Sequence record: OZ035756.1
DNA length: 64,000 nt
Source of the DNA: Tequatrovirus LF73P3
Strand: one strand, 5' to 3'
Shown here: positions 38,551 to 48,921 of the stretch, one piece after another
Layout of the letters: each line of letters begins with the position of its first letter
Position numbering within the stretch: the first letter of the stretch is position 1
The notes under the pieces: generated by a model
What the model saw: the letters and a program-made list of their open reading frames with translations, nothing else
Database searches by the model: none
What the model was told of the DNA's origin: nothing
Position numbers and translations under genes: made by a program

Positions 38551-39129
38551 TTAATTACCACGGGCTGCATTAGCAACGGCGTAAGCATACTGAACATTAG
38601 CGTCTTTAAACGTACCTTTAGAGGTATCTATTTCTGCCTTAAAGCCGCCTTTAGCCATAACATCAGCAAATTCTTTACGGAAAGCCATTGCATCAAGACC
38701 TTTCCATGATGATTTATGCTTGGCAAATTCAAGACCGGCGAAGTTGACAGCCTTAGCCAATTTATTGTCAATAACCCATTTACCAGCTTTAGGCACAAAC
38801 ACCGGGCCTTTCTGCTTAGAGAATAGTTTTAAATTCCAGCGACGAAGGTCACTGTCAGCTTTAACAAAAGCTGCGTCCAAGTTACTAGCAACAACATCTT
38901 GAATATGGCCAAATTTAAGCCCATCAACTTCAATATTTAGATCGGTACGCCAGCGAAGTCCTTCCCAAGCGAAGGCTTTAAAATCAGAAGCTTTTGTGGC
39001 TAGATATCGTTCAAGTGGAGCAGTTTTAGGGTCAAAGCCGTTTCCGCCACGATAAGTCCACTCGTCCTTATTAATGCCTTGAGCTTTTCCTGCAAAGGCC
39101 TCGGCGATAAATTCTTTATACGTTTTCAT
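38551..39129 (-). CDS. Internal-protein-like head protein with capsid targeting sequence (IPIII-sized, 192 aa)
   Basis: N-terminus MKTYKEFIAE matches the T4 internal-protein targeting consensus, with prohead protease-type site after FIAE. Confidence 0.6.
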   Translation of the reverse strand: MKTYKEFIAEAFAGKAQGINKDEWTYRGGNGFDPKTAPLERYLATKASDFKAFAWEGLRWRTDLNIEVDGLKFGHIQDVVASNLDAAFVKADSDLRRWNLKLFSKQKGPVFVPKAGKWVIDNKLAKAVNFAGLEFAKHKSSWKGLDAMAFRKEFADVMAKGGFKAEIDTSKGTFKDANVQYAYAVANAARGN

Positions 39130-39157
39130 GTGTTTCCTTGTTTGTTTTGATAGAGTA

Positions 39158-39190
39158 ATTATACCATATTAATACTTAAGCGTAAACTGT
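39158..39190 (-). promoter_or_regulatory. T4-type early promoter
   Basis: Minus strand GTTTAC-18 nt-TATAAT. Confidence 0.55.
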
Positions 39191-39418
39191 TTAAGCTTTA
39201 CCGCCAGAAATAATTCCGAAGTTGTTAAAATCGTATCCAATATCGTCAACATCTACTTTAGGGCTTGCTACAACATAAGCAATTTCACTACGTTTTGCAT
39301 AGGTGTTTATTTCTTTACCATTGCCGCCTAAGAAAGAATACCCATTACGTTTTAATGAGCCAAAATCTTCGGCATCACCAATGAAAGCTTTAACTTTAAA
39401 TTTGGGGGCCTTTGGCAT
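39191..39418 (-). CDS. Hypothetical protein (~75 aa)
   Basis: Track ORF 39191..39517 trimmed to internal Met to avoid overlap with denV. Confidence 0.3.
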   Translation of the reverse strand: MPKAPKFKVKAFIGDAEDFGSLKRNGYSFLGGNGKEINTYAKRSEIAYVVASPKVDVDDIGYDFNNFGIISGGKA

Positions 39419-39458
39419 CTGCTTCAGCGATAAATTCTTGATACATTTTAATTTTTCC

Positions 39459-39872
39459 TTAGTAAATTGATTTACCATAGTATTTGTACCAAGTAGGACG
39501 TTGAGCAATTTTTTCATCTAAGCGTGCTTGACTTATCGCAATGGACGCTTCGTCCGGGACATAATTATTACGAAATTCGGCAGGGATGTCGGAAATATCC
39601 TGGACAGTCGTGTCCTTGATTTTGAAACCACGTTTCAAGCATTCAGCGATTAGCTCGATTTGACGTAAACGTAAAAATTCGAGCTTGTCGTAAAAGAATG
39701 TTACGTGACCTGTGCCTAATATAAATGTTGGAGAGATTTTAAAATCCTTTACACATTTACCGTTTTGAACATGTTTACGGACTGCACCAAATACGCGTGG
39801 TAATTCACGATACTCTGCCATAAGATGTTGGTCGGTCAGTTCAGAAACAAGTGTTAAATTGATACGGGTCAT
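39459..39872 (-). CDS. denV: Endonuclease V (pyrimidine-dimer DNA glycosylase)
   Basis: [12 protein letters not shown]...[12 protein letters not shown]... closely matches T4 DenV as I recall it; start at MTRINL. Confidence 0.93.
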
Positions 39873-39898
39873 AATTTCCTCCAAGTAGTTGATGAATG

Positions 39899-39931
39899 TA
39901 TAGTATCAAAACCCTTGGAGGAAGTAAACAC
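39899..39931 (-). promoter_or_regulatory. T4-type early promoter upstream of denV
   Basis: Minus strand GTTTAC-18 nt-TACTAT. Confidence 0.55.
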
Positions 39932-40212
39932 TATTTTTCTGACGCGCCTGAAATATATTTTTCAAGACGTTGTTTCATTAGCGAGCCGTTCTTAGCGATT
40001 TCTTCCGGTTTATCGCACATACGCAACAAGGCTTCAAGCTTAACGATATCGCTGGTACGTTCAAATTTGCGAGTATCTATCTTACTAGCAAGTTCAGAAA
40101 TACGTGCTAATAGACTTTCGGCTTCAACCAAAGCTGCACCTAGCTTAGTTGCAAAGGTGTCAGTAGCTTCGTTAAGAATAGATTCTGATAAAAATTCACT
40201 ATATGTTTTCAT
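39931..40212 (-). CDS. Internal-protein-like head protein with capsid targeting sequence (IPII-sized, ~93 aa)
   Basis: Starts [10 protein letters not shown] (targeting consensus) at the internal Met of the track ORF. Confidence 0.55.
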
Positions 40213-40697
40213 ATATACGCTTTCCAAGTTCCTGTTTTAAATGTTGAGATTACGCGTTTCGCGCGATTAGGTGTCTGACGATACCATTTAGATTGGGCTA
40301 GATTTACTGCTGCTTCATCCCAGCGTTTTTGTTGGAGCATACGTAAAGAATTAGTAAATCCCGCTACGCCGGTTTCCCCCATTTGGAAGACCATGTTAAT
40401 CAATGCACAGCGCCGAACAGCATCAAGAGAATCATAAACTGGTTTTAATTTAGCATTTCTCAGAATTCCGCGAACAGCAGCATCAACATCCTGATTAAAG
40501 AGTTTTTCAGCCTCATCTTTTGTAATTACACCATTGCAATTACGCCCAATAGCTTTATCTAATTCAGATTTGGCAACACTAAGTGATGGACTTTTAGTAA
40601 GCAAATGTCCAATGCCAATAGTGTAATAACCTTCTGTGTCTTTATAGATTTTAAGTCTAAGACCTTCATCTATACGTAACATTTCAAATATATTCAT
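40209..40697 (-). CDS. e: Endolysin (T4 lysozyme, gene e)
   Basis: [33 protein letters not shown]... near-identical to T4 lysozyme with catalytic E11/D20/T26 context; C-terminus diverges slightly from T4. Confidence 0.97.
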
Positions 40698-40723
40698 AAT
40701 ACCTCCTAAGTATTTATAGAAGG

Positions 40724-40731
40724 TATTTATA
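40724..40731 (-). promoter_or_regulatory. Late promoter (TATAAATA) upstream of e
   Basis: Plus strand tatttata = minus-strand TATAAATA about 27 nt upstream of the e start; a second copy lies at ~40711. Confidence 0.5.
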
Positions 40732-40733
40732 AA

Positions 40734-47325: not shown

Positions 47326-47399
47326 TGGAGCGGATAATGAGAATCGAACTCACATCATCAGATTGGAAGTCTGAGGTAATGCCATTATACGATATCCGC
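47326..47399 (-). tRNA. tRNA-Gly (anticodon UCC)
   Basis: Acceptor GCGGAUA/UAUCCGC, anticodon loop CUUCCAA, CCA encoded. Confidence 0.85.
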
Positions 47400-47404
47400 A
47401 AATT

Positions 47405-47491
47405 TGGTGCGAGAAGTGGGACTCGAACCCACAAGGAAATCATTCCGCAGCATTTTAAGTGCTGTGTCTTTACCAATTTGACCATTCTCGC
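47405..47491 (-). tRNA. tRNA-Leu (anticodon UAA)
   Basis: GCGAGAAUGGUCAAAUUGGUAAAG..., anticodon loop ACUUAAAAU region, long variable arm, CCA. Confidence 0.85.
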
Positions 47492-47492
47492 G

Positions 47493-47565
47493 CTGGGAAT
47501 AAAGGACTCGAACCTTTGCATCTAGCAGTCAAAGTGCTATGCCTTACCAACTTGGCTAATTCCCA
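47493..47565 (-). tRNA. tRNA-Gln (anticodon UUG), CCA apparently not encoded
   Basis: Acceptor UGGGAAU/AUUCCCA, anticodon stem-loop UAGCA-CUUUGAC-UGCUA; abuts tRNA-Leu. Confidence 0.8.
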
Positions 47566-47662
47566 ATTATTAACAAAGGCTCTCTAACAAGAACCCTTGA
47601 TGATAGAGGGTATTAATCAGTGCGATATGAGTTAATAATAACAAATAATTCTTAAAGCATAT

Positions 47663-47950
47663 TTACCATTTATGATAATACATATTTACGATGCATTCAA
47701 GACCCAAAGGATTCTTGAAAATATCATATTCAAGAGGACCTTTTTCTGTTTCAATAAAGAAATCAAAATTTACTGTATTAAATTTACGGTCTTCCTTTAC
47801 TAATTTAACTTGAGAAGATGAACGGTCAGTGTAAACCTTTTCAACTTCAAAACATGTTAAAATGCCATAATCATCAATCAAGGCTTTAGCTGCTTCTTGA
47901 TCATATTTATATCCATTTTCAATGGATGATACTTTCGCATAAAGAATCAT
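47663..47950 (-). CDS. Hypothetical protein (95 aa)
   Basis: ORF downstream of tRNA cluster. Confidence 0.4.
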   Translation of the reverse strand: MILYAKVSSIENGYKYDQEAAKALIDDYGILTCFEVEKVYTDRSSSQVKLVKEDRKFNTVNFDFFIETEKGPLEYDIFKNPLGLECIVNMYYHKW

Positions 47951-47952
47951 TA

Positions 47953-48357
47953 TTAACCTTTATCAACAATAGTATGTGTATGGGCATTTACGATTTGCCA
48001 CCAATCGAAACTATCGCCAAATCGTTTTGATTTATTGTCTTCAATAATTTGGCGTAATTCATCTTCTGTTTCAGCATACGCAATCAAATCATCATATCCA
48101 CCGCAAGGATAGTAATTATCGCCTGCGAACAAAAGAAAATTTACTTTAGATGGGTCTACATAATAATGCTCTTTAGGATATTTAGTTCCTCTCCAATCAG
48201 TTACTTCAACATAACGATAAGAAAATCCATTTTTACTTTCAATCCAACTCCACGCTTCAAAAGGAGTATTAAAAACTTTATCAGGTATTAAATTACCTTC
48301 AAAATGAGAAGGATTTGCATAATCCCCGGCATAAACATAATATTCGTTAATACTCAT
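47953..48357 (-). CDS. Hypothetical protein (134 aa)
   Basis: ORF. Confidence 0.4.
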   Translation of the reverse strand: MSINEYYVYAGDYANPSHFEGNLIPDKVFNTPFEAWSWIESKNGFSYRYVEVTDWRGTKYPKEHYYVDPSKVNFLLFAGDNYYPCGGYDDLIAYAETEDELRQIIEDNKSKRFGDSFDWWQIVNAHTHTIVDKG

Positions 48358-48582
48358 TTATTCACCTTTAGAAATTTTATCCATAACGATAGCGATTAAA
48401 CCAATTAAAAATGCTACTACAAGTGAAAACACATTTTCTGCTGTAGTTAATAATCCGCATATAAATCCAACAAACATTGAAAAACTAAAAGCAGAAGCAG
48501 AAACTGCAATAGCAACATTTCGAATTAATTCACAACGTTTCATTTTTATTCTCCTCAGTAGTTGATAGGGTAATAATATCAC
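48358..48582 (-). CDS. Small membrane protein (74 aa)
   Basis: Two hydrophobic helices. Confidence 0.4.
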   Translation of the reverse strand: MILLPYQLLRRIKMKRCELIRNVAIAVSASAFSFSMFVGFICGLLTTAENVFSLVVAFLIGLIAIVMDKISKGE

Positions 48583-48604
48583 TACCCCATCTAAAAGTAA
48601 ACGG
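48572..48604 (-). promoter_or_regulatory. T4-type early promoter
   Basis: Minus strand GTTTAC-18 nt-TATTAT. Confidence 0.55.
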
Positions 48605-48612
48605 TTTATAAA

Positions 48613-48921
48613 CTATTTTATTCCGCGTGATGCAATTGTGTTCTGCCGTTTAACACCAGTTTGTTTAAAGTCATGATTGTCGATTTGATCGGTACGAGCA
48701 ACTCCGAATGATGATTTGATCTTAGCTTTAGATCCTTTAGTTATAGAAATAAACATCTCGGAAGCCCCTTTCTTAAAGTCCGAAGCGATTACTTCAACGC
48801 CGTTCTTAGCAAGTGACTTCAGAATTGCCTCTGCATACTCATCGTCAAGACTCGTCTGAGTATTAATAACGAATGTCTTTGGCGCAGCCGCTTCATTGAT
48901 AAATTCTTTAAATGTTTTCAT
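48613..48921 (-). CDS. Internal-protein-like head protein with capsid targeting sequence (102 aa; ipI position upstream of 57B)
   Basis: N-terminus MKTFKEFINE|AAA (targeting consensus); located where T4 ipI sits. Confidence 0.55.
   Translation of the reverse strand: MKTFKEFINEAAAPKTFVINTQTSLDDEYAEAILKSLAKNGVEVIASDFKKGASEMFISITKGSKAKIKSSFGVARTDQIDNHDFKQTGVKRQNTIASRGIK

Follow-up and report, generated by a model that had tools for sequence, protein, structure and literature searches.

Four putative internal-protein genes with a common capsid targeting sequence, and a probably decayed fifth copy, in Tequatrovirus LF73P3

Introduction

What role could be played by a set of phage genes that begin with the same short peptide and then have nothing further in common? 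Within the window, by which we mean the whole 64,000-nucleotide (nt) stretch of Tequatrovirus LF73P3 analysed here (sequence record OZ035756.1), four open reading frames (ORFs) on the minus strand, at 38551-39129 (192 amino acids, aa), 39931-40212 (93 aa), 44755-45318 (187 aa) and 48613-48921 (102 aa), open with MKT(Y/F)xEF(I/L)xE(A/S). They are very probably internal-protein (ip) genes of a T4-like phage, that is, cassettes whose tagged products are cut by the prohead protease gp21 and injected as anti-defence proteins. Three of them are already named or annotated as internal proteins (IPs), namely Ip3 (192 aa), Ip7 (102 aa) and an Ip5-like protein of the RB69ORF127c type (93 aa). Our own comparisons give the motif, orthologies and gene order, along with the cassette boundaries and the decay of a further copy; for the function of the capsid targeting sequence (CTS), gp21 cleavage, injection and the targets of Ip1-Ip3 we rely on the literature.

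Results and discussion

A common targeting sequence on unrelated proteins

A degenerate DNA pattern of the motif, scanned across the window, hit exactly four sites, all in these same four ORFs. The mean chance expectation is 0.06, and none of 100 dinucleotide-preserving shuffles reached four; six-frame peptide scans of the window gave no further intact CTS copy. The N-termini read MKTYKEFIAEA in the 192-aa, MKTYAEFLTEA in the 187-aa and MKTFKEFINEA in the 102-aa protein. Mutagenesis has assigned CTS residues 4 and 7 to targeting and residues 8 and 10 to gp21 processing (PMC9026906), and Y/F4, F7, I/L8 and E10 are all kept in the four ORFs, position 4 being Y/Y/Y/F and position 7 always F. The predicted gp21 site at positions 8-11, (I/L)-x-E plus a small residue, reads IAE↓A, LSE↓S, LTE↓A and INE↓A (the arrow marks the predicted cut). 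Codon by codon, the CTS admits three or four residues at positions 5 and 9 and only the conservative alternatives Y/F at position 4 and I/L at position 8, and Thr3, Glu10 and Ala11 vary synonymously. Free 'x' positions combined with synonymous variation elsewhere point to selection on the CTS peptide.

Behind this segment the proteins diverge completely. BLASTP among the four aligned only the first 11-20 residues, with unrelated bodies, and each protein matched its own PHROG, cross-matches reaching no further than residues 1-20 or 1-35. Three of the four belong to PHROG families of the 'internal virion/head protein' kind, and sequence searches of Pfam, NCBIfam and the PDB gave nothing meaningful for any of them. 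An earlier note on this DNA, which had reported a targeting consensus on four ORFs whose bodies lack mutual similarity and had read it as capsid targeting, is thus borne out on the consensus and on the bodies, and its reading agrees with the published CTS. Its list of tagged genes was right for the four intact ORFs and overlooked a fifth, decayed copy, described below. The predicted mature forms of Ip3 (182 aa, 20.1 kDa, isoelectric point (pI) 9.65), the 187-aa protein (177 aa, 19.7 kDa, pI 9.46) and Ip7 (92 aa, 9.9 kDa, pI 9.65) are basic, so that three of the four proteins have a mature pI of 9.5-9.65, like T4 Ip2 and Ip3.

Gene order and the displaced Ip3 gene

The DNA of this region is about 95% identical to Tequatrovirus genomes including P922, EcNP1 and Nami, and the region is collinear with positions 62-77 kb of the T4 record. 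Its order is a vs.8-like gene (37831-38421), the 192-aa gene, a broken ORF, denV (39459-39884), the 93-aa gene and e (40209-40697), followed by nudE, e.2 to e.8, the 187-aa gene, an rnaC/rnaD-like region, a 116-aa ORF, tRNA-Arg, segB with the tRNA cluster, trna.2 to trna.4, the 102-aa gene, 57B, 57A, gene 1 and gene 3. T4 has vs.8, denV, ipII, ipIII and e in that order, and ipI between trna.4 and 57B. Published accounts describe two Ip loci (PMC12373910, PMC2839356), one from 57B to trna.4 and a second from vs.8 to e around denV; Ip7, Ip3, the 93-aa gene and the decayed copy all lie within them.

The 192-aa protein is 91.7% identical to T4 IPIII over 192 aa (BLASTP) and matches phrog_5341, 'internal virion protein', with an E value of 2.8e-117. 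T4 IPIII has the same CTS (MKTYKEFIAE↓A) and the same size, and differs in the residues after the cleavage site (AFAGKAQ in the window, ASVVKAK in T4). The earlier note did not recognise this gene as Ip3 itself. The T4 order that it gave (ip genes between denV and e) proved correct by comparison with T4, and so did the displacement of the largest tagged gene across denV: the T4 gene lies between ipII and e, whereas here it lies between vs.8 and denV, beside a decayed gene of the RB69ORF125c type. The window thus holds one orthologue of T4 IPI-IPIII among its four tagged genes, and that one is not in the T4 order.

The displacement relative to T4 is real, yet it is a recurring layout of a second Ip locus that spans both sides of denV. 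Nami and UFV13 carry Ip3 on the same side of denV as the window, and the vs.8-denV interval is a variable Ip array: RB69 has three CTS ORFs there (123c, 124c and 125c), FL18 has Ip2, UFV13 has an ORF124c-type gene plus Ip3, and Nami has the layout of the window. DNA homology to T4 ipIII is limited to 38534-39139, indicating that the Ip3 gene moved as a gene-sized cassette. In E. coli ECOR17, T4 IPIII inhibits a two-gene GmrSD system and, because of this orthology, the Ip3 of the window probably acts against ECOR17-type GmrSD.

Ip7 and the Ip5-like protein

The 102-aa protein (CTS MKTFKEFINE↓A, phrog_2667) is 99% identical to T2 ip7 and appears as 'Ip7 protein' in several sources; the name follows the nomenclature of Repoila et al. 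1994. Between 48583 and 48899 it takes the place of T4 ipI, at the locus that Ip7 also occupies in T2, between 57B and trna.4; T2 has Ip5 and Ip7 there, P922 has IpI and Ip7, and the window has Ip7 alone. The AF2 model of Ip7 shows a moderately confident beta-alpha-beta-beta-alpha core (pLDDT 74-85 for residues 11-60 and 72 for 61-70) with a basic, low-confidence tail. Foldseek against the PDB returned only generic ferredoxin-like (ACT/RRM) folds (best E 6e-3, TM about 0.5), with no T4 internal-protein entry in the top 50. The model would fit with unrelated cargo folds, and we draw no functional conclusion from it.

The 93-aa protein matches phrog_3499, 'internal head protein' (E 1.2e-46), which is also its RefSeq name, and 132 phage records contain it at 99% identity or above. 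The start codon of its gene shares bases with the e stop codon (ATGA), and the protein has a predicted cleavage site before S together with a second site, LNE↓A, at residue 15. It is 47.6% identical to Ip5 of T2 and RB32; Ip5 is known from T2, T6, RB14 and RB32, and the RB14 annotation already ties it to RB69ORF127c. The gene in the window lies at the second Ip locus, fused to the e stop codon, and not at the ipI locus. By eye, RB69ORF127c (RB69 741-1022) is essentially the 93-aa ORF from residue 11 on; it starts MKTYMNFYQN..., whereas the 93-aa ORF has a canonical CTS. The RB69 tag is degenerate (MKTYMNFYQNLSLNE↓A), having lost Glu6 and Glu10 while keeping Tyr4, Phe7 and the second LNE↓A site, which suggests that residue 15 may be the real cleavage site in the Ip5-like family.

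The denV gene (39459-39884, minus strand; Pfam Pyr_excise, E 2.3e-14) sits in the middle of the second locus as an RB69-type allele that is only 78.4% identical to T4 at the nt level. The segment 39101-40830, comprising the 3' part of e, the 93-aa ip gene, denV and the decayed ip gene, is RB69-type and Mosigvirus-like (90% nt identity to RB69), and the backbone around it is otherwise T4-like (93-97% to T4). An RB69-type module inside a T4-like backbone makes this stretch a mosaic.

Homology breakpoints, repeats and transcription

Comparison with relatives places the boundaries of exchange where the CTS-coding segment ends. The window loses homology to RB69 and UFV13 at 39101, and to FL18 at 39107, which correspond to codons 8-10 of the Ip3 gene; past that breakpoint ORF124c-type genes follow in RB69 and UFV13, and Ip2 in FL18. 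On the other side of the region, T4 homology resumes at 48900, codon 7-8 of Ip7.

Repeated elements accompany the cassettes. A 41-nt early-promoter-like element, repeat D3, occurs in three copies on the minus strand: upstream of Ip3 (39147-39187; TTTACG-17-TATAAT with TG), upstream of Ip7 (48941-48981; GTTTACA...TACTAT within an inverted repeat) and downstream of Ip7, upstream of trna.4 (48562-48602), the two copies around Ip7 being early-promoter/stem-loop elements. A promoter scan placed the corresponding sites at 39186-39158 (10/12 matches) for Ip3 and at 48980-48952 for Ip7. T4 ipI, ipII and ipIII have the same kind of promoter/stem-loop element, and D3 matches the 'IP-associated elements' that PMC2839356 attributes to Repoila et al. 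1994. The cassette of the 187-aa gene is bracketed by two 28-nt terminator-like hairpins, repeat D12, with 75% identity and 687 nt apart; a terminator scan placed one 3' of the gene (44719-44746, minus strand), and its direct repeat lies just upstream, at the rnaC-like 3' end (45406-45433, minus strand). T4 has a single copy of this hairpin (record 70827-70854).

Homology breaks at the end of the CTS segment, together with the bracketing repeats, support cassette swapping, so the proposal of swappable cargo gains backing from the breakpoints, and the hypervariability previously claimed for these loci between T-even phages matches known Ip loci (PMC2839356, PMC12373910). The shared CTS-coding 5' end and the repeated promoter/terminator hairpins could provide the homology for exchange between phages, by which each phage would acquire its own mix.

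With regard to expression, two canonical late promoters (TATAAATA) lie upstream of e (40711-40731, minus strand), and T4 has the same pair. Late transcripts of the stretch from the 93-aa gene to Ip3, which includes denV and the decayed gene, likely come from this pair, because no terminator-like site was found on the minus strand between 40700 and 38500. None of the ip genes in the window has a canonical late promoter directly upstream; this says little, since the T4 ip genes also have none.

Injected anti-defence proteins or parts of the head

Published work provides a mechanism into which these genes could fit. The first ten residues of IPIII suffice for the entry of proteins into the prohead core, and the tag is removed by gp21. 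A head contains about 300 copies of each IP, and many IPs are ejected into the host (PMC9026906, PMC3012670). Accordingly worded for LF73P3, the CTS of about ten residues would bind the scaffolding core during prohead assembly, gp21 would cut after the Glu of (I/L)-x-E, and the freed small, usually basic protein would stay among the packaged DNA, to be injected along with it ahead of any phage gene expression and to block a specific first-line defence of the host. The mix in this phage would comprise Ip3, Ip7, the Ip5-like protein, the unannotated 187-aa protein and one decaying copy; by analogy, we infer that Ip3, Ip7 and the Ip5-like protein are packaged and injected.

Ip1, Ip2 and Ip3 are inhibitors of three different GmrSD type IV restriction enzymes, with no cross-protection (PMC12373910). 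Infection of ECOR17 needs Ip3, which is also active as a tag-less protein made in the host (PMC9391042). A further CTS protein of the same class, bas37_0260 at the ipI locus of Bas37 (KarlGJung), inhibits McrBC (preprint 10.1101/2025.11.20.689424); it has the same CTS and a phrog_8111 body that is absent from the window. From these published cases, every Ip with a known target appears to act on a type IV restriction enzyme for modified DNA.

Such proteins might alternatively be mainly parts for head assembly or DNA packing (scaffold helpers or basic counter-ions) rather than injected effectors, their diversity reflecting weak constraint, which we regard as quite improbable. T4 mutants lacking IPIII or all three IPs accumulate polyheads, IPs co-purify with gp22, three of the four mature proteins predicted here are strongly basic, and the published screen found no targets for ip4-10, all of which a head-part role would explain. 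It would not account for the specific, non-overlapping restriction-enzyme targets of all three T4 Ips, nor for the inhibition of McrBC by a fourth CTS protein. Host-expressed CTS-less Ip3 restores infection, implying that Ip3 acts in the cytoplasm. In addition, whole-cassette replacement and presence or absence in close relatives fit accessory genes of an arms race better, and the 93-aa protein is not basic.

Several points nevertheless weigh against injected anti-defence cassettes as an account of the whole set. The predicted mature 93-aa protein (9.2 kDa, pI 6.26) lacks the basic character of the others and has extra internal (L/I)xE sites, three in its mature body compared with none in the other three bodies; the depletion of such sites in mature bodies was not significant (P = 0.10 by shuffling). 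Tests of ip4-10, including Ip7, against 15 GmrSD groups gave no reproducible target (PMC12373910), so that an anti-GmrSD role for Ips other than those of T4 is an extrapolation. The literature yielded no virion proteomics or injection data for this phage.

The 187-aa protein and a possible third locus

The 187-aa protein (CTS MKTYAEFLTE↓A) is the member of the set that carries no previous designation as an Ip. It matches phrog_2280, 'unknown function', and no named Ip in PHROG and protein searches. Copies are present in 164 phage records; identity is at least 95% in 163 and 85% in the last one, and the annotations are all 'hypothetical' or 'Phage protein' among the matches listed (40 rows; for example RB14ncORF136c, Shfl2p135 and bas37_0243). 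RB14ncORF136c, RB69ORF149c+148c and bas37_0243 are 97-100% identical to it and occupy the same position between e.8 and the rnaC/tRNA region, and none of them was annotated, or found discussed, as an internal protein. A gp21 cut would expose Ala11 as the new N-terminus (AAKLPSEADLTK...) of a mature protein predicted to be all-helical.

We lean, if only slightly, towards a genuine internal protein at a third ip locus. The CTS is complete, including the targeting and cleavage residues, and the predicted mature size and pI resemble those of Ip3. One distant homologue, P0027 (32% identical, pairwise E 1e-13), emerged from an HMMER scan of 1.84 billion representatives. It is encoded on a metagenomic contig alongside genes that match T4-associated Pfam families (Phage_30_3). 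Its sequence starts with MITFNEFLNES, and this retention of the tag while the body diverged indicates that the tag is conserved far better than the body in this family. In Bas37 (KarlGJung, MZ501089), bas37_0244 (157 aa, 6402-6875) adjoins bas37_0243, starts with the CTS-like MKSYTQFLNEA and matches PHROG 2280; its family spans 512 phage records, which are 'hypothetical' or 'Phage protein' throughout among the matches listed (15 rows). Homology of bas37_0244 to the 187-aa protein was considered and not retained beyond the PHROG assignment, the pairwise BLASTP alignment covering only the CTS. A word-indexed search of 5.8 billion proteins gave only near-identical copies of the 187-aa protein and truncated or chimeric fragments.

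Other features are less favourable to a packaged protein. The gene is part of a 659-bp inserted segment that T4 lacks, located between e.8 and the rnaC-like region and outside both described Ip loci. It directly follows a terminator-like hairpin, its sole late-promoter candidate is a 7/8 match (AATAAATA), and its sigma-70-like site is weak. In the RB69 reference (AY303349, 7429-7991) the gene is frameshifted into ORF149c and ORF148c at the same locus, the surroundings (1.25 kb) being 93% identical to the window. The AF2 model is too weak for a search by fold (pLDDT 58, pTM 0.32), suggesting no more than a helical N-domain, a low-confidence and probably disordered linker (76-98) and a long helical hairpin. 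The literature search found nothing on the ORF names of the family or on virion proteomes of its carriers.

Most of these features could be explained if the protein were not packaged and its N-terminus were a recombination relic from an ip cassette, the product acting only in the infected cell or being dispensable. CTS-coding segments and ribosome-binding regions are common crossover points, and the protein is hypothetical among the matches listed, belongs to a PHROG without an assigned function and has attracted no literature that we found; its position outside the two published loci, behind a terminator-like hairpin and without a canonical late promoter, and the RB69 frameshift would all suit a relic. 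We consider this unlikely. A relic would not be expected to keep a complete CTS on a protein of Ip3-like size and pI, nor would it explain the same N-terminal pattern on P0027, only 32% identical and in another genomic context, or a second CTS-like gene of the same PHROG at the same locus in Bas37. As to the wider proposal that the 187-aa and bas37_0244-type genes form an unrecognised third ip locus for injected helical proteins of about 20 kDa, with a target unlike those of Ip1, Ip2 and Ip3, the sequence comparisons leave us evenly divided.

The sole Pfam hit among the four proteins, a match of the 187-aa protein to cytochrome b562, was sub-threshold and was rejected. Two of the fragments are chimeric. 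In P0011 (118 aa, from a metagenome), the middle of the 187-aa protein (...LDDAKKAAR) is followed by the C-terminal part of NudE (RECLEETGF...), as if the e.2-e.8 block had been deleted in its entirety at an 'AAR' microhomology; the other, P0010, contains the C-terminal half of the 187-aa protein.

A probably decayed fifth copy

The broken ORF between Ip3 and denV (39191-39452, minus strand) is a decayed ip gene of the RB69ORF125c type, matching phrog_2667. Its CTS-coding DNA (39415-39455) was found both by an unbiased repeat finder (family D1) and by a loosened peptide scan. The minus strand reads ATT AAA ATG TAT CAA GAA TTT ATC GCT GAA GCA GAT GCC AAA GGC CCC CAA ATT TAA, giving (I K) M Y Q E F I A E A D A K G P Q I and a stop. 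Two lesions are apparent. The ancestral ATG has become ATT (39450-39452), leaving codon 3 (39444-39446, MYQEFIAEA) as the first ATG, and a run of five C at 39404-39408, where the aligned relatives Nami, UFV13, RB69 and FL18 have four, shifts the frame, so that the tag frame stops at 39396-39398 and the body runs on in the frame of an ORF at 39191-39517. With one C removed, the predicted product has 86 aa and shows 93-98% identity to the intact genes of 214 phage records, among them RB69ORF125c; many of these carry the annotation 'internal head protein'.

The extra C occurs only in the window among the aligned genomes, and the ATT is common to Nami, where the gene is annotated from Met3; the annotated ORF of P922 has the same 255-nt length. 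Across a 76-nt stretch containing the five C, 0 of 153 records match at 100%, and the closest three phages (four records, EcNP1 being present twice) differ by just that base. Exact-pattern scans of IMG/VR found neither the 5-C nor the 4-C version. UFV13 has an independent 2-bp deletion in the same gene, and this deletion and the two lesions here point to ongoing decay of the gene in the lineage, barring a homopolymer read error as the source of the extra C.

That proviso matters, as the gene might be no pseudogene: the extra C could be a sequencing error, or the ribosome could slip +1 on CCC-C, with a full-length product starting from Met3. The extra base sits in a homopolymer run and is unique among 153 records, the window otherwise equals Nami across the start and frameshift region (with two differences, both later), and Nami is annotated with an intact 84-aa ORF from Met3. 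CCC-C is a sequence that permits a +1 slip of tRNA-Pro. However, pausing is not known to occur at CAA, the codon that comes next in the zero frame, and programmed +1 frameshifting was judged unlikely; moreover, the 2-bp deletion in UFV13 indicates that the same gene does decay in this lineage, and loss of the ancestral ATG already strips M-K from the tag. An intact gene is therefore a doubtful alternative to decay, though one to be taken seriously. Homology of the decayed gene to Ip7, with which it shares phrog_2667, was also considered; pairwise BLASTP aligns only the CTS, and the link is kept as a PHROG assignment only.

Other differences from T4 in the region

T4 e.7 is replaced in the window by a different 181-aa ORF (43665-44210, minus strand). 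The DNA at 43640-44199 has no homology to T4, and the N-terminus of this ORF resembles by eye that of RB69ORF146c (…VMSLYTELN…). A 116-aa ORF (45743-46093, minus strand) between the rnaD-like region and tRNA-Arg, which T4 lacks, has counterparts in T2 (T2_136), RB69 (ORF150c), P922 and Bas37 (bas37_0245). The tRNA cluster (46110-47565, minus strand) differs from that of T4, with a tRNA-Tyr at 46901-46987 and, where the T4 annotation has tRNA-Ile, a tRNA with a CAT anticodon at 46997-47073. The segB ORF as called by the program (46189-46962, GTG start) overlaps tRNA-Tyr, so its true start is probably further downstream.

Significance

The swappable ip gene set of T-even phages is already known. 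Hypervariable ip loci with a shared leader are attributed to Repoila et al. 1994, and more than 30 IP variants to Comeau et al. 2007, in PMC2839356; anti-restriction targets were reported by Bair and Black 2007 (as cited in PMC3012670) and by Silas et al. 2025 (PMC12373910). The principle has thus been established since 1994, and targets were defined between 2007 and 2025. The cargo novelty implied for LF73P3 is small: three of the four proteins already bear names or annotations as internal proteins, and the 187-aa family is the one that does not. What is mildly new concerns annotation: the 187-aa family probably represents an unannotated Ip at a third locus, and a fifth copy has decayed.

Among phage molecules, internal proteins encounter the host defences first, and each set helps to decide which strains can be infected, so that ip sets matter for choosing or engineering therapeutic T4-like phages. 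The practical value here is the annotation of one such set, consisting of Ip3, Ip7, an Ip5-like protein, one decayed copy and a 187-aa CTS protein. If the 187-aa protein were confirmed in virions, it would establish a third ip locus and a widespread candidate anti-defence protein, and it would then be a candidate against type IV restriction systems that have no known inhibitor.

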